A DNA stretch of 54,181 nucleotides from a virus (IMGVR_UViG_3300036852_000023:1-54181), one strand, 5' to 3'. Numbered from the stretch's first letter, positions 128 through 25,975 are shown. Translations and numbers: made by a program. The notes: a model not told the origin generated them from the sequence alone.

Positions 128-281
128 TTTCCACGTAGTCAACGAACAAGACCTGAATGTTTACACAATGCTTGGCGCTATTGAGACATTGAAGCGCGAT
201 TACATGGACATGGAAGTGCCTGGCATTCTAGACGTATACCAAGACATGCAAGACCAAGGGGAAGAAGATGGAACAGAATAA
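27..281 (+). CDS. Hypothetical protein between terL and portal; true start is probably ATG 54030 across the circular junction (MADFDIQKLIGSPSLETMPEAV...)
   Basis: In-frame ATG 1 nt after the terL stop with continuous frame through the overlap. Confidence 0.75.
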   Translation: MPEAVRDLMRDLLEGRVRQYAIVAELDDGNIGVGFHVVNEQDLNVYTMLGAIETLKRDYMDMEVPGILDVYQDMQDQGEEDGTE

Positions 282-447
282 TAATCAAACATTGGGCGAG
301 TGGCTGAAAGAGCTAATGGATAATCCGCCAGCCCCAAATGAGTTTCTGATTGAGCGATTCCGCGAATATCAGTCCAGGAAGATGGAAGACAAAGGTTCCG
401 CGTCAATCTTTGAATTGGGGATTAATCATGTCGCTGAAGGTGAATGA
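268..447 (+). CDS. 59-aa protein with a TacA/DUF1778 antitoxin-like C-terminal motif (not in ORF track)
   Basis: Manual translation MEQNNNQTLGEWLKELMDNPPAPNEFLIERFREYQSRKMEDKGSASIFELGINHVAEGE; AAGGGG upstream; overlaps both neighbours and fills the gap. Confidence 0.6.
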   Translation: MEQNNNQTLGEWLKELMDNPPAPNEFLIERFREYQSRKMEDKGSASIFELGINHVAEGE

Positions 448-1855
448 GCCAACAGACGCAGTCAAGGCCATGCAGCCAGCCATTGATAAGATGGCGGCGC
501 TTGTCGGCGGCACAGAGGCTATGCGTGCTGCTGGGCGTAAATACCTGCCACAATTCCCGCTTGAAGCTGACGAAGATTACGCTTTCCGTCTGCAAACCTC
601 CACGTTATACAACGCGACTGGCTGGACGATTGGCAATTTGGCGGGGAAGCCTTTTAGCGAGGCCGTGACCGTCACTGATGCCAATGAGGCTATAGATGGG
701 TGGCTAGAGAATATAGACCTATGCGGCCATGACATTACCAACTTTGCGCATCTGCTATTTTTTAGCGGACTGAGCGATGGATTAACGCATGTCATGATTG
801 ATTTCCAAGTCACGCTCGATACTGATGGCAATCCAATTTACCGAACCCGGGCACAAGAGAAAGAGGCGGGTTTGCGGCCTTATGCAGTGCATATCAAGCA
901 ATCGCAAATTCTTGGATGGATCACCGAAAATCAGAATGGCTATGAAAAGCTGGTTCAACTTCGGTTCATGGAATGCGAATACGATCAAGATGGCGACTGG
1001 GGCGTGAAAGAAGTGCCACAAGTCCGCGTGCTGTTACCTGGTGCATGGCAGAAGTGGCGCAAGAAGCAAGACGGCGATGAAACTTGGTATTTGTATGAGG
1101 AGGGGCCGACATCGCTGGATTTCATCCCATTCGTGACTTATTACACGCGTCGAACCGGCTTCATGACCGCTATGCCGCCGTTAGAAGACCTGGCTGACCT
1201 GAATATCAAGCACTGGCAGTCACAGAGCGATCAAGACAGCCTGCTGCATACTGCCCGCGTGCCTATCCTGGCGCGCATTGGATTGCAGGATGACCCGGAG
1301 ACTCAAGCCAAGATCGGCAAGAGCATCCATGACCTGCCGGCAGGCGCAGATATGAAGTATGTAGAGCATTCCGGCGCTGCAATCGGCTCTGGCCGCGATT
1401 CGCTGCAAGACCTCAAAGAAGATATGCGCTCAATGGGCGCTGAACTGCTCGTACTCCAGCCTGGCGACCGATCAGCCACTGGCGAGGCGCTTGATTCGGC
1501 CAAATCACAAAGTCAGCTTCAGCAAATGGCAACTAACCTAGGCGATTTTCTGGATGAAGTGCTAGACATCATGGCCCGTTGGGCGAATGTCCAGCCAGGT
1601 GCGCATGCGAAGGTATTCAACAATTTCACGGCGGTATTGGCGAATGAATCGAACGTGCTGCAAATCACTCAGGCCATTATTGCCATGAAATCGGCAGGGT
1701 TGCTGGATGACAAATCCGCGTTTGAGGAAATGCAGCGATATGGAATCATAAATGCTGATGTGAAATGGGAAGATGTCCAGGCGCTGATTGATATTCAGCC
1801 TCCGCTATTGATGCAGCAATCCAAGTCACCAGTACAGACGGATCCGCAGCAATGA
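428..1855 (+). CDS. Portal protein (DUF4055-like)
   Basis: GGTEAMRAAGRKYLP and PPLEDLADLNIKHWQSQSDQ motifs; position after terminase; ATG 428 with GGGGA RBS preferred over 350. Confidence 0.9.
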   Translation: MSLKVNEPTDAVKAMQPAIDKMAALVGGTEAMRAAGRKYLPQFPLEADEDYAFRLQTSTLYNATGWTIGNLAGKPFSEAVTVTDANEAIDGWLENIDLCGHDITNFAHLLFFSGLSDGLTHVMIDFQVTLDTDGNPIYRTRAQEKEAGLRPYAVHIKQSQILGWITENQNGYEKLVQLRFMECEYDQDGDWGVKEVPQVRVLLPGAWQKWRKKQDGDETWYLYEEGPTSLDFIPFVTYYTRRTGFMTAMPPLEDLADLNIKHWQSQSDQDSLLHTARVPILARIGLQDDPETQAKIGKSIHDLPAGADMKYVEHSGAAIGSGRDSLQDLKEDMRSMGAELLVLQPGDRSATGEALDSAKSQSQLQQMATNLGDFLDEVLDIMARWANVQPGAHAKVFNNFTAVLANESNVLQITQAIIAMKSAGLLDDKSAFEEMQRYGIINADVKWEDVQALIDIQPPLLMQQSKSPVQTDPQQ

Positions 1856-2034
1856 AAAAATGGCCGCCTAAACCGTTTACTGGTGCATTCCTAAAGAAAG
1901 TTGAAGAATCGCGCAAGATGCTGGATAAACAGCCAGTGCCAATTGGTTTACCAATGGTAATTGATGGCGAATATATCTATGCCAAAGAATGGAATGCCAA
2001 AGAATGGCTAAAGAAGACTTATGGCCTCCGCTGA
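1852..2034 (+). CDS. Hypothetical protein
   Basis: ATGA overlap with portal stop. Confidence 0.55.
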   Translation: MKKWPPKPFTGAFLKKVEESRKMLDKQPVPIGLPMVIDGEYIYAKEWNAKEWLKKTYGLR

Positions 2035-3073
2035 AGATGACGTAATCGCCCACGAGCTAATCATCCGTGCAATCCGGCTGAATAGATTCACGGCCAGCCA
2101 GCGGGCGCAGATATTCGAGCTAATGAAGGAAATGGAGGATGAGCTAATCCTTCAGCTTCAGCGCGCTGACCTGTCAGACATTGGGCGGCGCGACCGCGCC
2201 AACTTGCTCAGGCAGGCTAGGGAAGTCATCGACCAATACTACGGCGAGATAAGCGACACCGTAGGCAGCACGCTAACCGACCTAGGCCGCGCCGAAGCAA
2301 AGTTCATGGCCGATACCATCTCAAGCGCATTCCAGGCTCAGATAGCCGTTTCGCTGCCCACTGAGGGCTATTTCCAGTCATTGCTCAAAGACACGCTAAT
2401 CCAAGGTGCGCCGAGTAAAGATTGGTGGGTTAGACAGGCTGGCGATACGGCGTTTAGATTTGCCAATGCCGTGCGCCAAGGTCTAGTCATGGCTGAGACT
2501 AATGACCAGATCATCAAGCGTGTGATGACGACTAATGGGCTGCTGGATGGTATACCACGGCGCAATGCAGCGGCCTTAGTGCAGACATCAGTTCAGCAAG
2601 TGGCATCTGACGCGCGGCGGGCAACTTTTGAACAGAATGACGATATAACTAAAGGCATTAGGCAATTGAGCACGTTAGATTCCAAAACTTCGCAAATTTG
2701 TGTTGCCTATTCTGGTGCGGAATGGGATAACGAGCGCAAGCCAATACGGCCAACGAAGCTACCATATAACAATGGTGTTCCTCGCCACTGGAACTGCCGC
2801 TCAACCGAAGTACCAATCACCAAGACATATAAAGAACTCGGTATTGACGCACCAGAAAAACCAGTGGGGCAAAGAGCCAGCCAAATAGGCCCAATCAGCG
2901 CAGATACAACAATGGCCGATTTCATCCGCATGCGTGGGCGAGGTTTTGCGGATGAATTGCTAGGAATTGGCAAGGCTGACTTATTCTTGAGCGGGAAAAT
3001 CACACTGCAACAGCTATTAGATCAATCCGGTAGGCCATTAACGCTTGAAGAATTGCAAAAGCTTTATGATTGA
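2021..3073 (+). CDS. Head morphogenesis protein (SPP1 gp7 / Mu F family)
   Basis: STLDSKTSQIC...PRHWNCRS motif; follows portal. Confidence 0.9.
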   Translation: MASAEDDVIAHELIIRAIRLNRFTASQRAQIFELMKEMEDELILQLQRADLSDIGRRDRANLLRQAREVIDQYYGEISDTVGSTLTDLGRAEAKFMADTISSAFQAQIAVSLPTEGYFQSLLKDTLIQGAPSKDWWVRQAGDTAFRFANAVRQGLVMAETNDQIIKRVMTTNGLLDGIPRRNAAALVQTSVQQVASDARRATFEQNDDITKGIRQLSTLDSKTSQICVAYSGAEWDNERKPIRPTKLPYNNGVPRHWNCRSTEVPITKTYKELGIDAPEKPVGQRASQIGPISADTTMADFIRMRGRGFADELLGIGKADLFLSGKITLQQLLDQSGRPLTLEELQKLYD

Positions 3074-3098
3074 CTTATTATCCGTAATTATGCCTTAC

Positions 3099-3134
3099 AA
3101 GCGGATGCTTTATGGCGTTCGGTTCGGATGAACC
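3099..3134 (+). promoter_or_regulatory. Pair of GGAU-loop hairpins in the scaffold gene leader
   Basis: aagc-ggat-gctt and ggttc-ggat-gaacc directly upstream of the RBS. Confidence 0.55.
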
Positions 3135-3152
3135 ATTTAGGGGAAGTGTAAA

Positions 3153-3920
3153 ATGCCTTGGAAACTTGGTGAAGATGGAAACGTTGTAACAGAAAACGGT
3201 ATGCCTGTTTTTGTTAATAACGGCAAAGAATCGCCGTTCGATGGTGACGGCACAATTGCCACGATTAGTCGCCTTAATGGAGAGGCTAAATCACACCGCG
3301 AACGAGCTGAAGAATTTGAGCGTAAGTACAAGCCGTTCGAGGGAATTGATGACCCTGTAGCGGCACGTAAGGCGCTCGATACCGTTAAGAATCTGGACGA
3401 CAAAAAGCTAGTAGATGCTGGCGAAGTCGAACGGGTTAAACAGGAAGTACTCAAGGCCGCTGAAGCTCAATGGTCGCCATTCAAGGCGAAATCTGAGCAA
3501 CTACAGCAGCAATTGGATTCGCACCTAATTGGTGGCGCATTCAGCAAATCGGCGTTTATCGCCAAGAATTTCGCAGCCGAAGGCCCAGCAGGCGTGGAAA
3601 TCGCCCAGGCTTTATTCGGCAGCCGCCTGAAGGTGGAAGATGGTCGCGTTGTTGGCTATGACTCTCAAGGCAATAAGCTTTATTCGCCTACTCGCCACGG
3701 CGAATTGGCGGATGCTGATGAGGCCATTGAAATCATGGTCAATCAGTATGCGCATAAAGACCACATCCTAAAGGGTAGTGGCGCGAGCGGGGGCGGGGCA
3801 GGCGGAGGCAAGCCTAGCGGTGGCGGTGGAGCTAAGAGCATGAGCCGCACGCAATATGAACAGCTTAGTCCGACCGAACAACGCTCGTTCGCTATTGGTG
3901 GCGGCAAGCTTACAGATTAA
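3153..3920 (+). CDS. Capsid scaffold protein (DUF6651-like)
   Basis: TIATISRLNGEAKSHRE, LDDKKLVDAGEVE and Gly-rich C-terminus; precedes the major capsid gene. Confidence 0.85.
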   Translation: MPWKLGEDGNVVTENGMPVFVNNGKESPFDGDGTIATISRLNGEAKSHRERAEEFERKYKPFEGIDDPVAARKALDTVKNLDDKKLVDAGEVERVKQEVLKAAEAQWSPFKAKSEQLQQQLDSHLIGGAFSKSAFIAKNFAAEGPAGVEIAQALFGSRLKVEDGRVVGYDSQGNKLYSPTRHGELADADEAIEIMVNQYAHKDHILKGSGASGGGAGGGKPSGGGGAKSMSRTQYEQLSPTEQRSFAIGGGKLTD

Positions 3921-3953
3921 GCACTGGCAGCAAAGAAATACCCGTAGTAGATA

Positions 3954-4000
3954 TGCCCGTGGCGGATGCCTTTCGGGTGGGTAGTTTAGGCTGGATGGCC
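3954..4000 (+). promoter_or_regulatory. Pair of GGAU-loop hairpins in the major capsid gene leader
   Basis: ggc-ggat-gcc (3961-3970, inside a longer stem) and ggct-ggat-ggcc (3989-4000). Confidence 0.5.
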
Positions 4001-4043
4001 GTTTAAGCATCGACTAAACAACTCATTTTGAAAGGTATCCATC

Positions 4044-5207
4044 ATGGCAAACACCCTGACTTCGCTTATCCCGACCATGTACGAGGCGCTGGATATTGTA
4101 TCCCGCGAACAAATCGGCATGATCCCTGCGGTATCGCGCAATTCCAGCGCCGAGCGCGCCGCGCTTAACCAAACCATTATGATCCCGATTGCTCCGGCTG
4201 TGACGCTGGGCAATAACACTGCCGCGCAGATTGCCCCGAACACCGGCGATCACACCATCGGCAATACCACGATGACCATCAGCAAGTCGAAGCATGCTCC
4301 GATTCGCTGGAATGGTGAGGAAACTCGCGGCCTGCTGAATGCCGGCACCTACGGCACCATTTTGCGCGATCAATTCGTTCAGGCGTTCCGTGCGCTTGGC
4401 AATGAAATTGAAACTGATCTATTCGATACCGGTCGCCAAAACGCATCGCGTGCCTATGGTACTGCTGCTACTGCCCCTTTTGGTACCGCTGCAGATTTGT
4501 CTGATATCGCTCAAGTCCGCAAGATTCTTGACGATAACGGCGCGGCGCAAACTGATCTGCAACTGGTGCTTGGTTCGGCTGCTGTGGCTAACCTGCGCGG
4601 TAAGCAATCTGTATTGTTCAAGGTCAACGAGTCAGGCACTGACGACTTGCTGCGCCGTGGCATGATCGGCCAGCTTGAGGGCATGGATGTTCACAACTCG
4701 AACAGTGTGACCGCAGTCACTAAAGGCACTGGTGCATCGTATACCACTGATACCGCTGGATACGCTGTTGGCGCTACCGCAATTACGCTGATTACCGGCA
4801 CTGGCACCATCCTGGCGGGCGATACTATCACCTTCGCGGGCGATACCAATAAATACGTTGTCACTACCGCGCTGACTGGCGGTGTGGTAACGATTGGTGC
4901 GCCGGGCCTGCGTGTGGCGATTGCTGCGTCTGCTACCGCTGTAACCGTGGGCGCTACTGCAACGGCTAACCTTGCGTTCGCCCGCTCAGCCATCCAGCTG
5001 ATTACCCGTACCCCGGCATTGCCGATTGGCCCAGATGGCCGCGCAATGGATATGGCTGACGACATGACCCAGTTGTTTGACCCGGTAACCGGCATTACTT
5101 ACGAAGTTGCCGTGTACCGTGAGTTCTTGCAACTCGTCTACCATGTGCGCCTTGCATGGGGCTTCAAGGGCATCAAGCACGAGCATACTGCGGTCCTGTT
5201 GGGCTAA
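4044..5207 (+). CDS. Major capsid protein (P22 coat-like)
   Basis: MANTLTSLIP..ALDIVSRE..G.IPAV N-terminus and LAWG..GIK.EHTAVLLG C-terminus; strong RBS; followed by a terminator. Confidence 0.9.
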   Translation: MANTLTSLIPTMYEALDIVSREQIGMIPAVSRNSSAERAALNQTIMIPIAPAVTLGNNTAAQIAPNTGDHTIGNTTMTISKSKHAPIRWNGEETRGLLNAGTYGTILRDQFVQAFRALGNEIETDLFDTGRQNASRAYGTAATAPFGTAADLSDIAQVRKILDDNGAAQTDLQLVLGSAAVANLRGKQSVLFKVNESGTDDLLRRGMIGQLEGMDVHNSNSVTAVTKGTGASYTTDTAGYAVGATAITLITGTGTILAGDTITFAGDTNKYVVTTALTGGVVTIGAPGLRVAIAASATAVTVGATATANLAFARSAIQLITRTPALPIGPDGRAMDMADDMTQLFDPVTGITYEVAVYREFLQLVYHVRLAWGFKGIKHEHTAVLLG

Positions 5208-5210
5208 CAT

Positions 5211-5238
5211 AACGGCGGTCTTCGGGCCGCCGTTTCTC
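5211..5238 (+). terminator. Intrinsic terminator after the major capsid gene
   Basis: aacggcggtc-ttcg-ggccgccgtt hairpin (UUCG loop) with pyrimidine tail. Confidence 0.8.
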
Positions 5239-5257
5239 TATATATTCAGGAATACAA

Positions 5258-5416
5258 ATGGATACTTGCCCGACTGTACATGTCGTTTCTGCTGATTCGC
5301 CAGATGGTTTCATCGTCATTAATGAATCTGATTTTGATGCTGGTGTGCATCAATTGTTTGGCGATGAAGAAAAGCCTAAACGTACCCGCAAGCCTAAAGA
5401 AGTGAGCGAGGAATAA
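5258..5416 (+). CDS. 52-aa head-associated hypothetical protein (not in ORF track)
   Basis: MDTCPTVHVVSADSPDGFIVINESDFDAGVHQLF...; AGGA RBS. Confidence 0.75.
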   Translation: MDTCPTVHVVSADSPDGFIVINESDFDAGVHQLFGDEEKPKRTRKPKEVSEE

Positions 5417-5418
5417 CC

Positions 5419-5505
5419 ATGCCGAAGCCGCATAAGCAGATGAAAAAGCCTAAACAGGTTGAGCCTGTTTATAAGACGCCGGTCAAGAAAAAGAAGGGCA
5501 AATAA
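5419..5505 (+). CDS. 28-aa Lys/Pro-rich basic peptide (not in ORF track)
   Basis: MPKPHKQMKKPKQVEPVYKTPVKKKKGK; GAGG RBS; TAATG coupling to next gene. Confidence 0.55.
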   Translation: MPKPHKQMKKPKQVEPVYKTPVKKKKGK

Positions 5506-6299
5506 TGCCTATCGGCGTTAGTGGGCGGCTGCGTGAGTATTTATTCGAGGTAGGCCTAGGCAATGTAGAAGGCCATAGACGATTCGCTGGCCTTGGGAAT
5601 AATACTGACGTAGACCAAGCCACCGTTCCCGAGCATGCATGGCCTGGCGGTGGATTATATCCGTGGATTGGCGCGGCTGGTGTATCGCTTGAAGTAGTAT
5701 CGGCCAGCGCTCAAGATTCTGCGACTGGCACGGGCATTTCAACTATATTGCTCACTACACTGGATATTGATTATGTTGAAACAACGCACACCATCCAACT
5801 AACTGGCACTACGGCGGTAGCAGTACCTGGCGGGCCATGGCTCCGTATTAATGATGGACGCGGGCTTACAAAAGGCTCTGGCGCAGCTGCAACGCGTGTA
5901 ACGAATGCGGGTGATATTACGATACGCGATTCTGGAGGCGGAACGGCTAGAGCGATTTTGCCAGCAGGTCGTAATTTTCTTCGGCAAGCGATTTACACAA
6001 TACCGGCTGGATATACCGGCGAAGTGCTGAGCATGTACATCGGCTTTAACCGGGGAACCGGCGTTGGGGCAACTCGATATTTAACTGTATCAACGTATTC
6101 TCAAAACCCATCAGGCGTATATTTGCTGCCCCTAGATCTGAGTTGTGATGGTGAATCATATCGGCATGATGGATTGCCAGGTATTTTCCTTCCGCAGAAA
6201 ACAGATTTTGCAATGGAAATCGTTGCGGTAAGTGCAGACAATTCAGACGTTACCTGTGCATTTTTGGGCGTGATGAAACAAAACTCAATAGCAATCTAA
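5505..6299 (+). CDS. Putative virion structural protein (beta-rich)
   Basis: 264 aa, Gly/Thr-rich, in the structural operon. Confidence 0.6.
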   Translation: MPIGVSGRLREYLFEVGLGNVEGHRRFAGLGNNTDVDQATVPEHAWPGGGLYPWIGAAGVSLEVVSASAQDSATGTGISTILLTTLDIDYVETTHTIQLTGTTAVAVPGGPWLRINDGRGLTKGSGAAATRVTNAGDITIRDSGGGTARAILPAGRNFLRQAIYTIPAGYTGEVLSMYIGFNRGTGVGATRYLTVSTYSQNPSGVYLLPLDLSCDGESYRHDGLPGIFLPQKTDFAMEIVAVSADNSDVTCAFLGVMKQNSIAI

Positions 6300-6310
6300 G
6301 GGAATGAGCC

Positions 6311-6586
6311 ATGGCTTTGATTAATCGTAGCGGCACCATAACTACCGGCGGCACGGCTCAGACGCTCATGGCTGCTGATACGACTCGCAACGGTTTTAGT
6401 GTGCAGAATCTTTCAACTGGTGATTTGTGGATTAATGAGCTTGGCGGTACTGCCGCAGCTTCACAGCCAGCGATCAAGATCACATCTGGATCATTGTACG
6501 AAACGCCACGTGGGATGCCTTGCGAATACGCAGTGAGTATCTTTGGCGCGACGACCGGACAAGCGTTCATGAGCCGTTCTTGGTAA
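6311..6586 (+). CDS. Putative small virion or decoration protein
   Basis: 91 aa, all-beta look (SGTITTGGTAQTLMAAD..R.GF.VQN). Confidence 0.6.
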   Translation: MALINRSGTITTGGTAQTLMAADTTRNGFSVQNLSTGDLWINELGGTAAASQPAIKITSGSLYETPRGMPCEYAVSIFGATTGQAFMSRSW

Positions 6587-6609
6587 AACAATAATAAGAG
6601 GAAATTGTC

Positions 6610-6996
6610 ATGCCTATGTATACGAGCGGCACGGTCACTTACGAGAACCTACCGTCAGGCGTTGGGCCAGGGAAACCACGAATTTCTACTGTTGCCTATG
6701 CCGCTAGCGTGACTTTGGATTGGGCTACCGCTGATATTTTTGAGATTACATTAACCGGCAATATCACAATTACCCATAGCGGCGGTGCTAATAATGGCGA
6801 GAAAAAAGAGATTCGATTGATTCAAGACGGCACCGGCTCGCGGGTGGTTACTTGGGCGAATAATACATACGGCTCTGATGTGATGAGCACTAGCTCAGTC
6901 GCAACTGTAACAGCAAGCAAGCGCGATAAATGGATATTTGAATACGACAGCGGCAACACTACTTACACCATGGTTAGCGCGGCAAGGGGGTATTAA
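6610..6996 (+). CDS. Putative fibre-associated protein
   Basis: ITLTGNITIT...LIQDGTGSRVVTW motif typical of phage fibre domains. Confidence 0.6.
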   Translation: MPMYTSGTVTYENLPSGVGPGKPRISTVAYAASVTLDWATADIFEITLTGNITITHSGGANNGEKKEIRLIQDGTGSRVVTWANNTYGSDVMSTSSVATVTASKRDKWIFEYDSGNTTYTMVSAARGY

Positions 6997-6998
6997 CC

Positions 6999-7187
6999 AT
7001 GTGGTCATTTATCAGGGTAGCGGCCATTGAAAAGAACGACCTATCCCCGGCCTGGTATGCAGTACTGACGCTTAAAAAAGACGGCATAGAAGAATCGTTC
7101 AGGCTGAAATATTGGCAAGAGCCTACCATGAGCCAGGCCGAACAGGCTGGTGTTGATTTAGCCAACAAGAAGAATAACGAGGCATAA
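6999..7187 (+). CDS. Hypothetical protein
   Basis: Tightly packed ORF with RBS. Confidence 0.6.
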   Translation: MWSFIRVAAIEKNDLSPAWYAVLTLKKDGIEESFRLKYWQEPTMSQAEQAGVDLANKKNNEA

Positions 7188-7189
7188 CC

Positions 7190-9331: not shown

Positions 9332-9332
9332 T

Positions 9333-11539: not shown

Positions 11540-11643
11540 TGTAAAATCAACGCGTAGTTTGATATACTTGATTAGAAATGCGAAACCGCAAAGTGCTGTC
11601 AACACAATGCGGCTTCTACCAGACAACTAGAGGAGTTAGTCGA

Positions 11644-12144
11644 ATGGCTAAGACGGATAATATCACGGCTGAACAAGTACGGGAATTGCTTGATTACGAT
11701 CCTGAGACTGGAATTTTTACATGGAAAGTCAAGTTAACTCGGTGGCATAAGATAGGCAGCATTGCTGCACATTTAAGTGGGGAATATCTACGAGTTAAGA
11801 TATTTGATAACTATATTAGGGCTCACCGGCTTGCTTGGTTATATGTATATGGTGAATTTCCAAAGCATGATATTGACCATCGAAACGGGAATCCACGAGA
11901 TAACAGTATCGCCAATCTGCGTGACGTGCCAACTTTTATTAATTTAGAAAACCAACGAAAACCAAGATCTAACAATAAAAGTGGCAGTGGATATCTAGGG
12001 GTCGGGTTTGAAAAAGGCAAGTGGCGCGCTCGAATTCGTGTTCACGGCAAGGAAATAAATCTAGGAAGGTTTAATACTCCACAAGAAGCGCATGAAGCTT
12101 ACATAGCTGCAAAAAGAATACTTCACGAAGGAAATACGCTTTAG
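11644..12144 (+). CDS. HNH homing endonuclease with AP2-like C-terminal domain
   Basis: LDYDPETGIFTW, AHRLAWLY, IDHRNGNPRDNSIANLR, KWRARI...LGRF; AT-rich; AGGAG RBS. Confidence 0.9.
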   Translation: MAKTDNITAEQVRELLDYDPETGIFTWKVKLTRWHKIGSIAAHLSGEYLRVKIFDNYIRAHRLAWLYVYGEFPKHDIDHRNGNPRDNSIANLRDVPTFINLENQRKPRSNNKSGSGYLGVGFEKGKWRARIRVHGKEINLGRFNTPQEAHEAYIAAKRILHEGNTL

Positions 12145-18158: not shown

Positions 18159-19000
18159 AAAGCATATCTGCCGCACTTGAAGCGCATTATGCTAGCGGCT
18201 CGCTAACGATCGCGAAGCTTTGGAAAGTCACGCGCATCGATGGGCAGGTTTTTGGCTTTACAAATATTGACAGAGATATTGTTTATCTCGGCATAACTTA
18301 TGAATCATCAACAGGGATTGAACCTAGCGCATTGCAGAGTAATGCTAGCTTTGCTGTAGATAATCTAGAGATGAAAGGGTTTCTCGCTGGTGCATCTTTG
18401 ACGGCGGCTGAAATCAATGCTGGCCGGTGGGATTATGCCGCGCTAGAGGAATTCGAGGTTAACTGGAAAGATTTGACCATGGGCCATTTAATTGGCCCTA
18501 AAGGCAAGCTAGGCCAAATCGTAAATGGACGCACCACGTTTACAGTTGAGTTCCGGGGAATGGCGCAGGCATTTACCCATGTCATTGGCGAATTGTATGG
18601 CCCTGGATGCCGTGCTGATCTATATGACGCTAGATGCATGGTAAATCCTGCCGCATTCACTTTTACCGATTCTGTTGATACCGTTACATCAAATCGCACT
18701 ATCGCCGCATCTGCATTGACTCAAGCCAATGGATATTTTAATGCCGGCAAAATCACTTTCACCAGTGGCTTAAACAACGGCTTATCCATGGAGGTGAAAT
18801 CATACACCGTCGGCGTGCTCGTTCTCCAATTGCCAATGCCTTACGCGATTGCTGTTGGCGATACATTCAGCGTGCGGCGTGGGTGCAATAAGATTGGGCG
18901 CCTAGGTGATTGCAAGCTTGTGTTCAACAATTATGTAAATTTCCGTGGTGAGGAAGATTTACCAGGCCTAGACAAAATCCTTGAGGTGGGCGGGCGATGA
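18155..19000 (+). CDS. Baseplate hub (DUF2163/BR0599, GTA-like)
   Basis: WKVTRIDG..FGFT..DRD, CRADLYDARC, GCNK...C...FNN..NFRG (Fe-S cysteines). Confidence 0.9.
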   Translation: MKSISAALEAHYASGSLTIAKLWKVTRIDGQVFGFTNIDRDIVYLGITYESSTGIEPSALQSNASFAVDNLEMKGFLAGASLTAAEINAGRWDYAALEEFEVNWKDLTMGHLIGPKGKLGQIVNGRTTFTVEFRGMAQAFTHVIGELYGPGCRADLYDARCMVNPAAFTFTDSVDTVTSNRTIAASALTQANGYFNAGKITFTSGLNNGLSMEVKSYTVGVLVLQLPMPYAIAVGDTFSVRRGCNKIGRLGDCKLVFNNYVNFRGEEDLPGLDKILEVGGR

Positions 19001-19398
19001 CGACTAGACAAGACGTTGTAGATGCGGCCCGAAAATATAATGGCGTACGCTGGCACCATCAAGGCCGGTCTATGGCAGGTATTGATTGCGTTGGGCTTGT
19101 GATTAAGGTCGCTCATGATTTGGGATTGAGCGACTTTGATGAAACAGGCTATGGTCGTCTGCCTGAAGGTAAGCGGCTTTTATCCGGTCTTAATGCCCAT
19201 ATGGATCGCGTGAAAGATTATCAAATGGGGGATGTGCTGCTAATGCGGTTCCAGACTGATCCCCAGCATCTGGCAATCGTGACTGATGTCGGGATTATTC
19301 ATGCTCTCACCCAAGGCCGTAAGGTGTTGGAGCACAGCCTTGATGATATTTGGCGCGCGCGCATCATAGCTGCCTATTCTTTCAGAGGGCTTGAATAA
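18997..19398 (+). CDS. NlpC/P60 tail-associated peptidase
   Basis: HQGR..G.DCVGL catalytic Cys; HLAI..IIHA. Confidence 0.9.
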   Translation: MTTRQDVVDAARKYNGVRWHHQGRSMAGIDCVGLVIKVAHDLGLSDFDETGYGRLPEGKRLLSGLNAHMDRVKDYQMGDVLLMRFQTDPQHLAIVTDVGIIHALTQGRKVLEHSLDDIWRARIIAAYSFRGLE

Positions 19399-22300
19399 TG
19401 TCAGGTCGTCTTATTGGTGGTGTAATTGGTGCTGTAATTGGATTCTATTTTGGCGGACCAGCGGGAGCGGCCCAAGGCTTTGCCATTGGATCAACCCTTG
19501 GCGGCCTGTTATTCCCCGGCAAACTGCCTGATGTCTATGGCCCACGCCTTACTGACTTAAAATTACAAGTCTCAACCTATGGGACTATGATCCCAATCTA
19601 TTTCGGTACCAATCGCGGTGCAGGTAACGTGATTTGGAAAACCGATATGGTTGAAACGGAACATACCGAAGAACAAGGCGGCAAGGGTGGCCCGACGCAG
19701 GATTTTCACACATACACCTATTCAGCTAGCTGGGCTATTAGCCTATGTGAAGGGCCAATAGTTGGCGTGCGTAAGATTTGGGCTGATAGTTTTCTAATTT
19801 ATGACGCATCAACGACAAATACGGGCATTTCGTATGCGCCGAGTATTATTAATGGCACGCAAGTAGTATCGACAGGCACACAGTCAATACCTGGCATGAC
19901 CGTCTATCTGGGCACAGAAACACAATTGCCTGACCCGACCATGGAGGCTCATTTCGGCGTCGGCAACGTGACGGCTTATCGTGGGCAGGCCTATATTGTG
20001 ATGACTGACTTTCAATTGGAAAAGTTCGGCAATCGCATGCCAGGCTTCAGTTTTGAAGTGGTTACAGAAGGTTCATTTGGCGATGTAATTTCTTACTACA
20101 CATCAAATAATGAGCTTGATTCAATAGTATATAACCCGCTTCTGAATGAGGTTTGGGTTTCCACGTCTCAAGATGCAGACGTAACTGAGCCAGCATTGAC
20201 TCGCATCAATGCTAATACCGGAGCTGTCGTAGGTTCAACAAGTGTCGGTGAATTTGTATCGTTCTACACTCCGATGATATACGACGAATTTGATCGTGCA
20301 GTGTGGGCATATGCTGCTGGTGGTATCAATAAGATTTATAAGTTTGATGCTGGAACTGGCGCATTCTTATTCAGTGCATCTCAAACAGATAATCAAGGCA
20401 TATATCTAAACCCATTTGATGGGTCTTTGTGGATCAAAAACACAAACAAGGTTACGCAAGTCAATAAAGACACTGGCGCAGCTATTTCTGTATCGGCTGC
20501 ACTAGGCTTCAATATTTACGATCTAACCTTTGCGACTGAAAACCAAGGGCGTAGATTTACGCCTGGCGGCGATACATTCATTGGGAACATTTATCTAACA
20601 TCTAACACTGTTGCGACTAATAAAAATCTGTATCGATACGACAGAACCAGTGCTGGTGTTGAATTGGTTTATACCGATGGGTCTACGCTCACAAACATGG
20701 CGTATGACACGACTAGAAACACGATATGGATTTTGCGTAATAGTGCCACGGCCATGGAATTTGACCCTGAATTTAGGGTAGCAACTGGCGATACGATAAC
20801 TATGGCTGTTGTTCCAACCGGAGGTGTTGGGTCATTTGTCTACGATGCCAATAGAGATATGCTTTGGGCTAGCCGTAGTTCGACCAATACGATTACTGGT
20901 AGCGCAGTATCAACGGGTACTGTTTATAAAACAGTATCTGGCTTAACTTTCAGCCCAACGATATTGCAACCGACATCATTTGCTATGTTTGCAAATGGTA
21001 CGAATATCGATGGTGAAGTCATCAAGATTATTTTTGATCGGCTGACGCCTGGTACGGTTCCATTAAGCGATGTATTAACCTCTATTTCTGAGAGAACCAC
21101 GCAACTTACGGCTTCTGACATTGATGTTACAGGGCAGACTTCTGTCATCGTTGATGGGTATACGATCACGCGTCAATCGCCTGCCCGTGCATGTATTGAG
21201 CAGCTTCAATCAGCATACTTTTTCGATGGTGTGGAATCTGATGGCAAGGCGAAATTCGTCAATCGTGGCGGCACATCTGCGGTAACTATCCCTACCGAAG
21301 ACATTGCAGCCTATCAGGCATACGGAGAAATTCCAGACGATATTGTTATTACCCGTGCGCAGGAAGTTGAACTCCCGAAAGAGGTCAATGTAACTTACAT
21401 TGCAAAAAGTGCTGATTATCAAACCGGAGCACAGCAGAGCCGCCGCTTAGTTGGTGCCGCCGGTCAGGTAACGACTGTTGAATTGCCTATCGTTCTGACT
21501 GACGATAAAGCGCGGCAAATATCTGAAATATCCATGTACAACGCGTGGACGTCGCGCACTGCCTACGAGTTCAGCACGAACCTAAAATACATCAAATACG
21601 AGCCGACCGATATTGTCACTATCGGGAATAAGACCATTCGATTGCTCGAAAAAGAAGAACAACAGGGAATTATCAAATGGAAAGGCCAGGCCGAAGAAAT
21701 TGAAGTCTATTCTCAAGCTGTAACAGGCGTGACGACTAGTTACATACCGCAAACTATTACTGAAACTGTAGCGACAGATTTGATGCTGCTGGATATCCCG
21801 ATGCTGCGTGATTCTGATGATGACGCAGGGTTTTACGCTACGGCAACAGGCTATCGTAGTGGGTGGAATGGTGCGGTATTGTTCAAATCAAATGATGATG
21901 GTGCCAGCTATACCGAAGTGCTCTCACTGACGAACGGTGCTGGAATTGGCTCGGCAACAACGGTGCTTGGCGATTTCTTCGGCGGGAATACATTTGATGA
22001 GGCAAACACTGTAACCGTATCATTGTTGGCTGGGGCGACGTTATCTAGTGCTACCGAATTGGCCGTGTTGAATGGCGGCAATGCTGCGTTGATTGGTGAT
22101 GAAATCATTCAATACAAAACCGCAACGCTAAACGGCGATGGCAGTTACACGATTAGCGGCCTGCTACGTGGCCGCCGTGGCACTGAATGGGCCATGAGCA
22201 CGCATATTGCTGGTGATCGATTCGTGGCGCTATCTAGCAGTACGCTGCGGCGTGTGCCGGCAACTACAGCGGAAATAGGCCTACAGCGTGTTTATAAGGG

Positions 22301-22700
22301 CGTGTCCATTGGTTCATCGCTATCAGATACAACAGCGCAGACATTCACCAATGCAGCCGAAGGGCTTGAATGCTATTCGCCTGTACAATTGGGCGGTGGC
22401 CGCGATGCTTCTGGAAACATAACCATCAATTGGGTGCGCCGTACTCGCATTGGCGGCGAATGGCGTGATTTGGTAGATGTGCCGTTGGGCGAATCGACTG
22501 AATCATACGAAGTAGAGATTTGGAACAGCACATTTACTACTTTGAAACGAACCATAACTGGCATAACCAGCGCGACTACATCTTATAGCTCCGCTAATCA
22601 GGTTACGGATTTTGGAAGTAATCAAGCAACAATTTATGTTCGAGTTTACCAATTGTCGGCCAATGTCGGCAGAGGTGTTAAGCTTCAGGGGACGGTTTAA
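19398..22700 (+). CDS. Tail tip / host-specificity protein (GTA megatron-like) with a beta-propeller-like insert
   Basis: GPRL.DL..Q.STYG..IP, AYRG.AY, FGNR.P.F.FEV, LLRGRRGTE, W.RRTR.GG.W.D..DVPLGE..E.YEVEI. Confidence 0.9.
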   Translation: MSGRLIGGVIGAVIGFYFGGPAGAAQGFAIGSTLGGLLFPGKLPDVYGPRLTDLKLQVSTYGTMIPIYFGTNRGAGNVIWKTDMVETEHTEEQGGKGGPTQDFHTYTYSASWAISLCEGPIVGVRKIWADSFLIYDASTTNTGISYAPSIINGTQVVSTGTQSIPGMTVYLGTETQLPDPTMEAHFGVGNVTAYRGQAYIVMTDFQLEKFGNRMPGFSFEVVTEGSFGDVISYYTSNNELDSIVYNPLLNEVWVSTSQDADVTEPALTRINANTGAVVGSTSVGEFVSFYTPMIYDEFDRAVWAYAAGGINKIYKFDAGTGAFLFSASQTDNQGIYLNPFDGSLWIKNTNKVTQVNKDTGAAISVSAALGFNIYDLTFATENQGRRFTPGGDTFIGNIYLTSNTVATNKNLYRYDRTSAGVELVYTDGSTLTNMAYDTTRNTIWILRNSATAMEFDPEFRVATGDTITMAVVPTGGVGSFVYDANRDMLWASRSSTNTITGSAVSTGTVYKTVSGLTFSPTILQPTSFAMFANGTNIDGEVIKIIFDRLTPGTVPLSDVLTSISERTTQLTASDIDVTGQTSVIVDGYTITRQSPARACIEQLQSAYFFDGVESDGKAKFVNRGGTSAVTIPTEDIAAYQAYGEIPDDIVITRAQEVELPKEVNVTYIAKSADYQTGAQQSRRLVGAAGQVTTVELPIVLTDDKARQISEISMYNAWTSRTAYEFSTNLKYIKYEPTDIVTIGNKTIRLLEKEEQQGIIKWKGQAEEIEVYSQAVTGVTTSYIPQTITETVATDLMLLDIPMLRDSDDDAGFYATATGYRSGWNGAVLFKSNDDGASYTEVLSLTNGAGIGSATTVLGDFFGGNTFDEANTVTVSLLAGATLSSATELAVLNGGNAALIGDEIIQYKTATLNGDGSYTISGLLRGRRGTEWAMSTHIAGDRFVALSSSTLRRVPATTAEIGLQRVYKGVSIGSSLSDTTAQTFTNAAEGLECYSPVQLGGGRDASGNITINWVRRTRIGGEWRDLVDVPLGESTESYEVEIWNSTFTTLKRTITGITSATTSYSSANQVTDFGSNQATIYVRVYQLSANVGRGVKLQGTV

Positions 22701-23347
22701 TGGCAAATAGCACTACGAATTTGGATTTGATTAGCTCAAGCCAATCGGGAAAAGAAACCACGGCCAATGCCGGATCCGATGCGAGCTCGCCAGCGACTGC
22801 ATTTGGCAGACGCGCATCTACTACTGCTGGGCTGACGTGGGGATATCTGGGCGGGACATTATGGGTTGATGGCGTACTAACTCAAATCGCCAATGGAACA
22901 GTTGCATTAACAGCCAGCACAACGAATTACGTTGAACGAACACGTGCTGGCGTAGTGAGCAAGAATACGACCGGCTTTACTGCTGGGCAAATCCCGCTAT
23001 ATCAAATCGTAACAGGCGCATCTACGATCACCAGCTATACCGATTACCGCCTGAGCAATACGCCGTTTACTGGTCGTCTAGTCCTTGCGATGGCCGATGC
23101 AAATAAGACGCTAACCGAAGCACAGGCAGCGAATCAGATTATTGAATTGACGGGCGCATTGACCGCGCTACGTGACGTTATAGTGCCTCTAGCGGTGCAA
23201 CAATGGACGATATTTGCTAATGTGACTGGCGGCTTTGGCGTGCGGATTATCGGTGCAACCGGGACGGGCATTACGATTGCTGATGGGAAACGGGCTATTT
23301 GCTACAGCGATAATACAAACGTAGTTCGCGCAACTGCTGATGTATAA
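22700..23347 (+). CDS. Tail fibre / receptor-binding-associated protein
   Basis: LDLI..SQ.GKE.TAN N-terminus, TTAGLTWGY.GG; follows tail tip. Confidence 0.7.
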   Translation: MANSTTNLDLISSSQSGKETTANAGSDASSPATAFGRRASTTAGLTWGYLGGTLWVDGVLTQIANGTVALTASTTNYVERTRAGVVSKNTTGFTAGQIPLYQIVTGASTITSYTDYRLSNTPFTGRLVLAMADANKTLTEAQAANQIIELTGALTALRDVIVPLAVQQWTIFANVTGGFGVRIIGATGTGITIADGKRAICYSDNTNVVRATADV

Positions 23348-23446
23348 TGCATAAAATGCGCGAATAATCAATACATTCAGGAAATAATCCGCCTATTACG
23401 CTACAATAGAGTGTTAATAATTATGTCTAATGTCGAGGCCAGACCA

Positions 23447-23623
23447 ATGCAGCAAGAAATCGCTAGCGCCGCCGTAAGAGTGGCCCCGTCATTTGGTACC
23501 GCTGCATGGTCAATCTTTGGGCTGCCGTGGGGTTCAATAGCCGCCATGCTTGGCTCAATCTATACCATCCTGATGATTAGTTTTTTGATCTATGATCGGT
23601 TCTTTAAGGTAGATAAAAAGTGA
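23447..23623 (+). CDS. Putative holin or antiholin
   Basis: Small hydrophobic protein with basic C-terminus immediately before the endolysin. Confidence 0.65.
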   Translation: MQQEIASAAVRVAPSFGTAAWSIFGLPWGSIAAMLGSIYTILMISFLIYDRFFKVDKK

Positions 23624-24084
23624 GGCGCGTCGGTAAGGCAGCGGCAGGTTCAGCCATCATCGTAGCTATTTGCTACTTTGTGACGCCGCAAGAGGGCTTA
23701 ATTACCCGTGCCTACCGTGACCCGGCTAATATCCTGACTATCTGCATTGGCGAAACTGAAGGCGTAAAGCCTGGGGACGTAAAGACCAAGGCAGAATGTC
23801 AGGAGATGCTAGCCAAGCGCCTACCGACTTATCTACAGGCTGTTGATGAATCTGTGGATAAGCCAATGCCTGACAATCGGCGCATTGCTTTGACCGACTT
23901 CGCGTATAACTGCGGCATCCGCTGCTACCAGAAGTCCAGCATCCCGAAATTGCTGAATGCTGGCAAAGTCACTGAGGCTTGTAACAAACTTTCGCTGTAC
24001 GTCTGGGCCGGGAACCCTAAGCGCAAACTGCCAGGCCTTGTAAAGCGCCGCGAAAAGGAGCGCCAGCTATGTTTAAGCTCGTAG
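23620..24084 (+). CDS. Endolysin, GH24 lysozyme with probable SAR anchor
   Basis: EG....YRDP...TIC.G.T catalytic triad, FAYNCG, LPGLVKRR..E; N-terminal hydrophobic Ala/Gly segment. Confidence 0.92.
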   Translation: MRRVGKAAAGSAIIVAICYFVTPQEGLITRAYRDPANILTICIGETEGVKPGDVKTKAECQEMLAKRLPTYLQAVDESVDKPMPDNRRIALTDFAYNCGIRCYQKSSIPKLLNAGKVTEACNKLSLYVWAGNPKRKLPGLVKRREKERQLCLSS

Positions 24085-24293
24085 ACGGTGCGCACCTATG
24101 GCACAAGTTGTGGTCGGTGAGGCTTGGCATCCTATCCGCCGTGCTAGGCGTCCTGGCGGAGGTTCTACCGATGTGGTTTCCTGATGTACCATATCGCACC
24201 ATGGCGCTGATTAGCACGCTGTTGGCGGCGGCTGCGGCCATAGCCAGCCTCATTAAGCAACCGAAACTTCTCGAAGCTCTGAAGGATAAATAA
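24069..24293 (+). CDS. Putative holin (two TM helices)
   Basis: KLV...W.KLWSVRL...A.L.KQPKL pattern. Confidence 0.7.
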   Translation: MFKLVDGAHLWHKLWSVRLGILSAVLGVLAEVLPMWFPDVPYRTMALISTLLAAAAAIASLIKQPKLLEALKDK

Positions 24294-24294
24294 T

Positions 24295-24618
24295 ATGTGG
24301 TCAGTCAAAGCCAATGTGAAAGCTCCGCACAGATTCATGCGCATGGGCGCAAAATGCTGGATCACTAACGCGAATTACGGCGGTGCAGCGGATAAGATAG
24401 AAATCGTTGGATTATCACGAAGCGGCAGACAAGTACGCACATGGATTGATAGCCGAGACTTGATAAACTTCCGCCCAGGCTGGGTAACTGATGACAGCGA
24501 TTACAAGTTATTTGTAGATAAAGCCGATGCGCAGAAATTATGCGATTGGCTAAATAAGGCATACGGCAATCAGCCAATCCGCGAACATGCGGCCAAATTC
24601 GGAGCCAGCCATGCTTAG
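24295..24618 (+). CDS. Hypothetical soluble protein inside the lysis cassette
   Basis: 107-aa ORF, AAGGA RBS, coupled to Rz. Confidence 0.65.
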   Translation: MWSVKANVKAPHRFMRMGAKCWITNANYGGAADKIEIVGLSRSGRQVRTWIDSRDLINFRPGWVTDDSDYKLFVDKADAQKLCDWLNKAYGNQPIREHAAKFGASHA

Positions 24619-25009
24619 AGACTTTGCGGTTCCTGAATTAATTTGGCTAAAGGTGATTGGTGTCCTAGTGCTAGTGGCCACTATCTTTGGTGCTGGCTTC
24701 TACTTGCGCGGCATGAAAGCAGACCGCGATATTGCCAAAATCACCGCAAAGCACGAAGGCGAGCGCGCAACAGCAAACGCTTTAGCACTTTCAAGCACAT
24801 CCGACCGTATCGACAAAATAAACGTCGCCGCCAAACAAAGTCTTGAAGATGTGCAGGCTTTGAATGGCAAACTCGCGGCACTCGCCGCTGAAAGAAAAAC
24901 TTATGTCGCATCGCATCCTATGCCTGCTAATTGCTATCCCGACTCTGTTCGCCTGCAGCAGCTTGAAGCCCAGCGAACGGCTAGTAATAGCGCCCTATCC
25001 GCCCCTTGA
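24611..25009 (+). CDS. Rz-like i-spanin
   Basis: N-terminal TM helix followed by coiled coil; GGAG RBS; overlaps Rz1. Confidence 0.8.
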   Translation: MLRDFAVPELIWLKVIGVLVLVATIFGAGFYLRGMKADRDIAKITAKHEGERATANALALSSTSDRIDKINVAAKQSLEDVQALNGKLAALAAERKTYVASHPMPANCYPDSVRLQQLEAQRTASNSALSAP

Positions 25010-25157
25010 TGCCTCGCTGGCCGCGCCGTGCCCAGCAATCCCAGCGCCTGACGCAGCCTCATACGACGCATGGCAAGACGCCTATATGGCGCTGATGGGC
25101 CAGTACGTTATTTGCGCAAGGCAGAAAGCAGCGATTGTGAAGGTTTGGCCGAAATAG
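24903..25157 (+). CDS. Rz1-like o-spanin lipoprotein
   Basis: Lipobox LFAC, Pro-rich, starts inside Rz in another frame. Confidence 0.8.
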   Translation: MSHRILCLLIAIPTLFACSSLKPSERLVIAPYPPLDASLAAPCPAIPAPDAASYDAWQDAYMALMGQYVICARQKAAIVKVWPK

Positions 25158-25371
25158 GCTCAAATTTCTCACCCATCAACGTAAGCCACCAATACTCAAA
25201 CTGTTCCCACGCAGCCTGCAAGTTATGCCCGTAGCCTTCAATCAGCGTATGGCCTAGCGGCTCCGTTTTGTTGCCGAAATAGTGCCACGGGGCCATCATG
25301 CTGACCTTATACCGGCCTCGCTTTACTTCATGCCTAATCTTCGGCTTCTTCGCATGGGTAGATTGGTCCAA
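25108..25371 (-). CDS. Hypothetical protein (start uncertain)
   Basis: Last ORF of the leftward arm. Confidence 0.4.
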   Translation of the reverse strand: MDQSTHAKKPKIRHEVKRGRYKVSMMAPWHYFGNKTEPLGHTLIEGYGHNLQAAWEQFEYWWLTLMGEKFEPISAKPSQSLLSALRK

Positions 25372-25519
25372 TGAAATATCCCCCCATCAATTTTATTTCA
25401 GCCGGACGATTTACCGGATCAAAATATTCAGGCTGCCATGCATCCTCATGACGGAATCGCCACCAGTACCAGCCAGCGGTGATGACTTCCTTAGCGGTCT
25501 TAATCATTTTTCTTGGCAT
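25334..25519 (-). CDS. Hypothetical protein (GWYWWR...G.FIGPI type)
   Basis: Coupled ORF; resembles 29225-29398. Confidence 0.6.
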   Translation of the reverse strand: MPRKMIKTAKEVITAGWYWWRFRHEDAWQPEYFDPVNRPAEIKLMGGYFIGPIYPCEEAED

Positions 25520-25697
25520 AGAATTTTTTCATAGCATCAAGCACTCTTGATAATGTAGCCGGATTTTCTAGCCTTAAGCGGATGGTGCCTTTATCAGAAT
25601 TGATTTCAATATGTTCGCTATTTGCCTCAAGCAATTTATATAAGCGTTGTGCTTCATCTGTCATTTTATGTCTAAACAGATTCATTACTATCTCCAT
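25500..25697 (-). CDS. Hypothetical protein
   Basis: ORF in the leftward run. Confidence 0.55.
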   Translation of the reverse strand: MEIVMNLFRHKMTDEAQRLYKLLEANSEHIEINSDKGTIRLRLENPATLSRVLDAMKKFYAKKND

Positions 25698-25708
25698 TCT
25701 GCTGGCGG

Positions 25709-25975
25709 TTAATCGACATAATCAGGTCCGCCAATCCCGCCTTGTAGCTTCGCGGATTTGATCTGAGCAATTGATTCCATTAAGCGATCAGCATTCTTTG
25801 GGTTGCCCAATAAATACAACGTTTCCTGTGCAGACTGAACCACCGCGCGCAAACGCTCAATCTCGTCGCAAATATTGACCATATCCGCAACATCAATCTC
25901 CGCCACAGAATAGCCAAACGATACGAACTGCACGATCTGTTCACGTATTTTGCCAATATCAACACTTTTGTTCAT
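25709..25975 (-). CDS. 88-aa protein with a YefM antitoxin-like C-terminal segment
   Basis: QETLYLLGNPKNADRLMESIAQIKS; ATGA coupling to the upstream gene and GGAGG RBS support start 25975. Confidence 0.7.
   Translation of the reverse strand: MNKSVDIGKIREQIVQFVSFGYSVAEIDVADMVNICDEIERLRAVVQSAQETLYLLGNPKNADRLMESIAQIKSAKLQGGIGGPDYVD

Follow-up and report, generated by a model that had tools for sequence, protein, structure and literature searches.

Two small open reading frames (ORFs) in the genome of a tailed phage, IMGVR_UViG_3300036852_000023 (positions 1 to 54181; this whole stretch of 54,181 nucleotides is called the window below), each hold the toxin-neutralizing tail of a different type II antitoxin family and lack the DNA-binding head of that family, and no cognate toxin gene was found in the genome for either of them. 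The first, ORF1 (268..447, plus strand; 59 amino acids, ATG start), is a stand-alone tail of the TacA/DUF1778 type without a ribbon-helix-helix (RHH) head; the second, ORF2 (25709..25975, minus strand; 88 amino acids), is a chimera in which a YefM-type, YoeB-neutralizing domain follows an N-terminal module that is not of the YefM kind. We consider it slightly better than an even bet (a probability of roughly 0.55) that both act as stand-in antitoxins, which would neutralize the YoeB and tRNA-acetylating GNAT toxins of a host, plasmid or prophage; toxin binding, neutralization, the timing of action and a benefit to the phage are what we infer for both. The original prediction, made from the sequence alone, had described the pair as a genome-dispersed system of headless antitoxin mimics. 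Its core, namely that two unrelated ORFs carry the tails of two families, one in the late operon and one in the leftward arm, with neither heads nor toxins, is borne out by the family models and gene maps described below. As a unit, the "system" did not survive: it has two members only, and because their genes are unlinked, the term can at most denote a shared strategy.

Whole-family models (Pfam, PHROGs and NCBIfam) returned nothing for ORF1. In the PDB, residues 12-29 matched two TacA-type chains, 7ak9_C (36 residues; E=0.045) and 7zg5_C (DUF1778; E=0.24), with which ORF1 has the exact 8-mer DNPPAPNE (319-342, plus strand) in common. An unbiased hidden Markov model (HMM) of the TacA tail was built from 28 TacA proteins chosen by the Pfam model (300 genomes scanned, 61 with a match), excluding any locus whose genome had been selected through the motif, as well as a weak second ORF and a single locus of an unpublished genome. 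Among the 1,249 six-frame pieces of the window of ≥25 amino acids, this tail HMM ranked the ORF1 frame first (12.0 bits, E=0.011), a score that none of 200 shuffled sets reached (shuffle maximum, 11.7 bits).

A profile search of 1.84 billion proteins placed ORF1 in a family. The query alignment (A1) combined ORF1 with L083 and part of L086, both viral look-alikes, and retrieved 29 proteins at E≤0.001, ORF1 included, which leaves 28 relatives. Pfam TacA1 (E≤0.01) recognizes 25 of the 28, with a full-length match in P0013 and P0020 alone; the match covers profile positions 24-79 in P0019 and 30-79 in P0030, and the remaining matches all start at or beyond position 35, mostly spanning about positions 43-80 of 80, which is the tail. 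Ten of the 28 relatives are just 44-65 amino acids long. The most ORF1-like of all, P0016, shares 60% identity with ORF1 across 25 residues, and one source labels it as a DUF1778-family protein. When an alignment of 11 tail-only proteins with ORF1 first (A3) was compared by hhalign with a full-length TacA alignment (A4, 26 proteins of the unbiased set of 28, the two omitted ones having long N-terminal extensions in their ORF calls), the profiles matched with a probability of 97.8% (E=6.7e-13). The match takes up 37 columns and lies at the C terminus of TacA, in columns 76-112 of a profile 116 columns long. The stretch of ORF1 aligned to the tail of full-length TacA comprises residues 6-39 (283..384, plus strand) and, because merely about 8-11 residues precede the tail, there is no RHH head. 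With A3 as input, AlphaFold 2 (AF2) predicted a helix at residues 9-18, a linker at residues 19-24 and a second helix at residues 25-44, with a predicted local distance difference test score (pLDDT) above 90 at residues 11-30. This modeled helix-NPPAPN-helix arrangement is the αC-PPAP-αD layout of the antitoxin KacA, in which, according to excerpts from PMC6698736, αC-71PPAP74-αD wraps around the toxin KacT and R77 of αD clashes with acetyl-CoA.

The context in which the 8-mer occurs elsewhere points in the same direction. Back-translated, it was found at 44 loci in species-representative genomes, 28 of which lie near the C terminus of small antitoxin-like proteins and 16 of which lie in unrelated contexts. 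Downstream of the 28 antitoxins, 24 have a GNAT-toxin-like ORF of 164-190 amino acids, three have truncated look-alikes and one has nothing similar; the four downstream ORFs that were checked with Pfam were all GNAT acetyltransferases, and the link to GNAT persists where the head is of the MazE/AbrB rather than the RHH type. We also scored the flanks on their own, with a position matrix from 24 distinct antitoxin tails that covered 14 residues upstream and 13 residues downstream and excluded the 8-mer itself. The flanks of ORF1 fell within the top 0.53% of random window anchors (167 of 31,772), and the corresponding values for ten non-antitoxin contexts of the 8-mer ranged from 0.04 to 0.83. 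A word-index search yielded no relative of ORF1, and the best ESM Atlas scores (0.78 and 0.84) went to unnamed clusters and were within the range of chance.

For ORF2, whole-family models matched the C-terminal part of YefM alone, and every score was below the family cutoff: Pfam PF02604 gave 16.8 bits (E=0.0059; cutoff, 29.8) for residues 47-73 against profile positions 46-72 of 74, and the NCBIfam YefM model (NF008499) gave 26.2 bits (E=6.6e-6; cutoff, 121) for residues 47-76 against positions 46-75 of 83. Likewise, phrog_10078 (E=7.9e-6) aligned residues 47-77 with profile positions 46-76 of 87, and among the ten PDB matches at E≤10 to residues 44-76, the top eight were YefM-family antitoxins (E, 0.0023-0.0058). 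To obtain separate models of head and tail, an alignment of 29 YefM proteins was cut at the boundary between the two parts. These proteins came from a search of 151 gammaproteobacterial genomes with the Pfam model (88 of 151 with a match), from which 30 loci were returned and one, from an unpublished genome, was dropped; 26 of the 29 yefM genes are followed by a YoeB-like ORF of 80-95 amino acids, and all three of those checked with Pfam were YoeB_toxin. Run over the same 1,249 pieces, the tail HMM gave ORF2 45.2 bits (E=5.3e-13, residues 47-77), the next-best piece of the window reaching 7.2 bits, and the head HMM gave no match to ORF2 at E≤10. The conserved tail positions of YefM are retained (31 aligned columns, 45 bits), and in the 12 best blastp matches, 27-38 residues align with individual YefM tails at 45-64% identity, the closest measured tails (57-64%) being chromosomal.

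The YefM-type tail of ORF2 comprises residues 45-88 (25712..25843, minus strand), corresponds to α3-α4 and ends in ...PDYVD, and the N-terminal module comprises residues 1-44 (25844..25975, minus strand) and is predicted to be helical. AF2, run on the single sequence, predicted nothing but helices (H7-19, H29-55 and H59-74; pLDDT, 72.7), and a Foldseek search with this model found nothing in the PDB at E≤0.001. A word-index search of 5.8 billion proteins returned a single relative, the metagenomic protein P0002 (108 amino acids), which is 100% identical to ORF2 over residues 1-44 and then continues into an unrelated C terminus for which no family was matched. A metagenome scan for the DNA encoding P0002 gave 166 pattern stretches, none of which was confirmed, and no relatives of ORF2 were found in viral contigs. 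The point at which ORF2 and P0002 part coincides with the boundary between the YefM head and tail. In Staphylococcus aureus YefM, according to excerpts from PMC7544224, residues 1-40 bind DNA and residues 41-81 (α3, α4 and β4) wrap around YoeB and block its catalytic core. Because residues 1-44 are unlike the YefM head and the swap lies at the head/tail boundary, ORF2 is best described as a head-swapped rather than a bare YefM tail; hence, the label "headless" fits ORF1, which is tail only, and has to be given up for ORF2. The comparison with P0002 points to a recent module swap at the residue-44 junction. We also considered ORF2 as a diverged full-length YefM, in which the tail would lie in the same register, and ruled this out because of the head HMM result, the all-helical model and the swap seen in P0002.

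No partner toxin came to light for either ORF. A YoeB HMM, made from 26 YefM neighbors, and a GNAT-toxin HMM, made from 21 neighbors of motif-bearing antitoxins, found no toxin in the six frames of the window (best scores, 8.2 and 8.6 bits, respectively), and no toxin or acetyltransferase family that could be taken as a cognate toxin was found by Pfam in its 102 ORFs. The suggestion that other small ORFs might hide further tails was not borne out. Neither the Pfam models of RelB, ParD, CcdA and MazE (E≤10, window) nor Pfam (102 ORFs) or NCBIfam (60 small ORFs) revealed another antitoxin family; because such models see isolated tails poorly, as ORF1 illustrates, this means that there is no third tail detectable with six families (YefM, TacA1, RelB, ParD, CcdA and MazE). 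One candidate, a 186-amino-acid ORF (29850-30410, minus strand), scored 10.2 bits with the TacA tail HMM and was rejected: 8 of the 200 shuffled sets reach that score and the first half of the tail alone is matched, so the match is probably due to chance.

Both genes bear the marks of coding, accessory genes. ORF1 fills the gap between an ORF at 27-281, which it overlaps by 14 nucleotides, and the portal gene, whose ATG at 428 it overlaps by 20 nucleotides, and a purine-rich stretch precedes its own ATG; being downstream of the large-terminase gene (52721-54028), it belongs to the late operon. L003, whose portal is the nearest relative (59% identity), has nothing between the two genes: its terminase frame runs to 2999 and its portal gene begins at 3001. 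Because terminase abuts portal there, we regard ORF1 and the ORF at 27-281 (plus strand; 84 amino acids; phrog_796, of unknown function, E=2.9e-5) as inserted accessory genes. No relative of either is encoded in 80 portal-related loci. ORF2 is one of six tightly packed small genes of a leftward operon with overlapping starts and stops (25108..26576, minus strand), its start codon sharing an ATGA with the stop codon of the upstream ORF (25972-26229). Its operon neighbors match no Pfam or NCBIfam family above noise, and a scan for promoters and terminators around it found sites no more common than in shuffled sequence. Like ORF1, ORF2 is an accessory gene. In terms of codon usage, ORF1 scores 0.45 bits per codon and ORF2 scores 0.52, in keeping with the long genes of the phage (five Pfam-supported genes used as controls, 0.03-0.51; three antisense ORFs, -0.06 to 0.17). 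Because head and tail of ORF2 are alike in their phage-like codons (0.54 and 0.45 bits per codon, respectively), the tail is not a fresh scrap of foreign DNA.

The idea that antitoxin tails serve as modular peptides was upheld for TacA by its occurrence outside the window and is echoed, for YefM, by the position of the ORF2 junction. Two Pasteurellaceae antitoxins that sit beside GNAT toxins (L117 and L126) combine a Pfam MazE_antitoxin head with TacA1 positions 48-79, P0030 joins a CsoR-type metal-repressor head to a TacA tail, and tandem tails occur in P0023 (two), P0021 (two) and P0014 (three). In addition, three planctomycete partners of GNAT toxins (L106-L108) have a TacA tail on a head that is not of the RHH type, those of L106 and L108 being unrecognized. 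Scattered TacA-tail proteins without RHH heads make up the series P0006-P0031, ten of which are stand-alone (44-65 amino acids); most of them are singletons from metagenomes, and some, on contigs of <1 kb, may be fragments. Among viruses, stand-alone TacA tails are rare: 24 pattern stretches in the viral collection yielded two confirmed ORF1 relatives. L083, the second stand-alone tail in that collection, closely follows a ribonucleotide reductase gene on an 88-kb contig, and L086 (6815-8149) is a 445-amino-acid membrane-type protein with an internal TacA-like tail (TacA1 positions 43-79, E=0.001). The next gene encodes a UvdE endonuclease, and the relatives of L086 are P0004, P0005, P0010 and P0028.

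The situation for YefM in viral contigs is a different one. Of 43 loci with the YefM-tail motif, 42 match the tail HMM; all 42 also match the head HMM, and 39 of them have YoeB downstream. ORF2 is thus the sole head-swapped YefM tail observed among viral tail carriers and, because the other 42 keep the head and 39 adjoin YoeB, it is not simply the usual toxin-antitoxin (TA) gene of a phage. Six prophage-like contigs whose portal is 36-37% identical to that of this phage carry a complete yefM-yoeB (L209, L211, L213, L222, L226 and L236, on the contigs of portal loci L030, L050, L028, L059, L034 and L029, respectively), from which we conclude that YoeB modules travel in this broad phage group.

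Taken together, these comparisons support the view that antitoxin tails behave as movable modules, and they suggest that the tail-only and tandem-tail TacA proteins form a wider, unnamed class. A bolder generalization, which we put forward tentatively and would not bet on, is that type II antitoxin tails circulate as free "toxin sponges", alone, in two or three tandem copies or on unrelated heads, and that phages collect several of them to counter different families of toxins. If true, this phage, with its TacA and YefM tails, would be the first recognized multi-tail carrier, the tail-only TacA proteins along with P0014, P0021 and P0023 would belong to the same undescribed class, and YoeB-type and GNAT-type TA modules would indeed restrict phages in nature.

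As to function, TacT/AtaT/KacT-type GNAT toxins acetylate aminoacyl-tRNA, and the ORF1 tail might wrap around such a toxin and thereby block its acetyl-CoA site and its dimerization. ORF2, in which a phage-specific 44-residue helical module, perhaps a dimerizing one, is joined to the YefM α3-α4 tail, might mask the catalytic face of an mRNA interferase of the YoeB type. The occasion would be given by infection itself: as host gene expression stops, labile host antitoxins would decay and toxins would be freed, whether their genes lie on the chromosome of the host, on a plasmid or in a resident prophage, whereupon the phage copies would hold them in complex and allow translation of phage genes to go on. 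Because they lack DNA-binding heads, ORF1 and ORF2 would not repress TA operons. Matches to both families were found in at least 23 of the 151 genomes searched for both (25 with the unpublished genomes G042 and G144), indicating that hosts with both targets are common.

Several points weigh against this reading. Regarding ORF1, Pfam TacA1 (PF08681) matched neither the protein nor the six-frame window at E≤10, the HMMER alignment to the unbiased tail HMM spans just 11 residues, the "L-[ST]-x-x-D" start common to other tail-only proteins has no clear equivalent, and the late operon is an unusual site for a counterdefense gene. Regarding the targets, PADLOC v2 has no defense model for YoeB or these GNAT toxins, and the literature searched gave no report of either restricting phage. 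Type II antitoxins are described, in excerpts from PMC11825919, as highly specific to their own toxin; a diverged tail may therefore neutralize few targets. Finally, each ORF is known from one genome alone, and selection is not measurable.

The alternative that survives best keeps the same binding mechanism and changes the beneficiary. In an inter-element conflict, the two ORFs would disarm yefM-yoeB or tacAT modules that serve resident prophages or plasmids for addiction or exclusion, and what the phage would gain is superinfection or the displacement of resident elements rather than escape from chromosomal defense. The 39 of 42 viral contigs with YefM tails that hold a full yefM-yoeB, six of them with the 36-37% identical portal, are in keeping with this, as is the anti-addiction role proposed for antitoxins in excerpts from PMC11825919 and PMC11541004. 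On the other hand, the measured tails closest to that of ORF2 (57-64%) are chromosomal, prophage copies being outside that comparison. All in all, we consider an inter-element conflict unlikely, if still a serious contender.

A second alternative is that we are looking at relics, that is, decayed or recombined TA genes, with ORF2 being an accidental fusion from a broken yefM-yoeB and ORF1 being a tacA fragment that has stayed open by chance or has been repurposed. That each form occurs in one genome alone, that related phages carry whole yefM-yoeB modules and that P0002 has another C terminus on the same 44 residues, which speaks for recent shuffling at the ORF2 junction, would all fit such an origin. 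However, neither frame is broken, both are coupled to their neighbors in translation and use phage-like codons, the conserved tail positions have been kept in ORF2, and no decayed trace of a toxin was picked up near either ORF with the YoeB and GNAT HMMs. In addition, ten tail-only TacA proteins of ≤65 amino acids, together with the forms with two or three tandem tails, are hard to explain as debris. We judge this origin to be decidedly improbable.

Even less probable, in our opinion, is a new TA pair, with ORF2 acting as the antitoxin to an unrecognized small toxin, for example the product of the 65-amino-acid ORF at 25500-25697, and ORF1 acting likewise. While this ORF encodes a protein without a known family and lies 12 nucleotides downstream of ORF2, an order of antitoxin and tightly spaced small gene that fits a TA operon, the tail of ORF2 is of the YoeB-binding kind, and three Pfam-checked YoeB proteins measure 84-85 rather than 65 amino acids. 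Moreover, the frame is absent among the YoeB HMM matches listed at E≤10, and ORF1 is directly followed by the portal gene. The least credible alternative, namely that the likeness of ORF1 to TacA is accidental in a short linker ORF and that ORF2 alone is a true antitoxin derivative, could draw on the lack of a Pfam TacA1 match at E≤10, the weak PDB E-values (0.045 and 0.24) and the presence of the 8-mer in unrelated proline-rich or structural proteins at 16 of the 44 loci in genomes and two of the four in viruses, but founders on the flank test, which without the motif still puts ORF1 in the top 0.53% (0.04-0.83 for non-antitoxin contexts), on the profile search and hhalign comparison that tie its family to TacA tails (E=6.7e-13) and on the 60% identity over 25 residues to the DUF1778-family protein P0016.

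How the two proposed stand-in antitoxins differ from classical ones can be stated precisely. Residues 45-88 of ORF2 are homologous to the C-terminal neutralizing domain of the YefM protein of YefM-YoeB (Phd/YefM family, PF02604; PDB 2a6q and 6l8e/6l8f) and lie as far from the N terminus as in the 83-amino-acid YefM; in contrast to YefM, ORF2 has no β1-α1-α2-β2-β3 dimerization and DNA-binding head, is predicted to be all helical, has no adjacent yoeB or doc and, as a whole protein, scores far below the cutoffs (16.8 versus 29.8 and 26.2 versus 121 bits). Similarly, ORF1 has the αC-PPxP-αD tail of the TacA, KacA and AtaR antitoxins of GNAT-RHH modules (DUF1778, PF08681; PDB 7ak9, 7zg5 and 5zgn), including the exact DNPPAPNE core of 7ak9 and 7zg5, but not their RHH head, a clear βB start, a GNAT toxin gene or a match to the Pfam model.

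The T4 protein Dmd acts on RnlA and LsoA, and the pseudo-ToxI RNA is another antitoxin mimic. ORF1 and ORF2 resemble Dmd, AdfA, NADAR, Gp145, TifA and pseudo-ToxI in being encoded by a phage without a partner toxin and in the silencing of a host TA toxin, which is proposed or shown for the known cases and proposed for ORF1 and ORF2. Most known protein mimics are not derived from the binding tail of the cognate antitoxin, whereas ORF1 and ORF2 are recognizable cutouts of classical type II antitoxins; the NADAR proteins resemble antitoxins but are complete enzymes of the type IV kind. Excerpts from PMC11825919 and PMC13728456 report phage antitoxin mimics or orphan antitoxins for RnlA/LsoA, ToxN and DarT, with AdfA and NADAR enzymes (against DarTG1), ICP1 Gp145 (against DarT) and TifA (against ToxN) as examples, and the former source, in the same excerpts, notes that type II orphan antitoxins are hard to find. 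On plasmids, orphan antitoxins of leading regions have been suggested to inhibit host TA defenses or rival elements (Samuel et al. 2024, excerpts from PMC11541004); a toxinless antitoxin gene on a mobile element is common to both cases, the plasmid one differing in that it concerns hipB, is plasmid borne and has no truncation noted in those excerpts. In the excerpts of the literature searched, no phage was described as carrying a YefM or TacA gene in tail-only or head-swapped form. The idea of counterdefense by orphan antitoxins is thus already known, and the two type II tails reported here are a new form of it.

It is still disputed whether YefM-YoeB, TacAT and other classical type II TA modules act against phages, and a phage that keeps the toxin-binding ends of two such antitoxins would be indirect evidence that their toxins harm it. 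On the practical side, tail-only HMMs succeeded where whole-family models failed (ORF1) or stayed below threshold (ORF2), and because they detected what Pfam missed or underscored, they offer a route to type II orphan antitoxins.

The genome itself, 54,181 bp long and with a 127-bp terminal repeat, is recorded as a complete virus in IMG/VR, and the Pfam scan of its 102 ORFs identified it as that of a tailed phage. Besides the large terminase, Pfam recognized the portal gene (428..1855, plus strand; DUF4055, E=6e-39; relatives in named phage records are annotated as portal protein), a P22-type coat protein, a lambda-type tail tube, tape measure and tip, a lysozyme and an Rz1-like gene; the long leftward arm encodes Erf, a DNA methylase, a helicase and a dUTPase, and the rightward arm encodes DnaB, NinB and several HNH endonucleases. 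Among named phages, the best portal match is 43% identical, and the hosts of matching phages are varied proteobacteria. The window DNA and both proteins had no match in a phage collection, the window DNA had none in Escherichia coli genomes, and no tRNA genes were found in the window.

A few further observations concern other parts of the genome and its closest relative. The rightward arm opens with a gene for a 77-amino-acid protein (41056-41289, plus strand; Pfam YdaS_toxin, E=1.8e-10; NCBIfam carph-isopro domain), directly upstream of an HTH_36 replication-type gene and DnaB; since this is the position of a Cro-like regulator, the YdaS_toxin label need not imply a toxin. Four HNH_3 endonuclease genes, one of them with an AP2 domain, are scattered over the structural and early regions (11578-12144, 36016-36642, 44174-44518 and 47342-47806) and are likely homing endonucleases. 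Finally, the terminase frame of the closest portal relative (L003, 711-2999) encodes 762 amino acids, compared with 435 for the terminase of this phage, and is overlapped in another frame by an ORF of 258 amino acids; it may contain an inserted element, for example an intein or an endonuclease.

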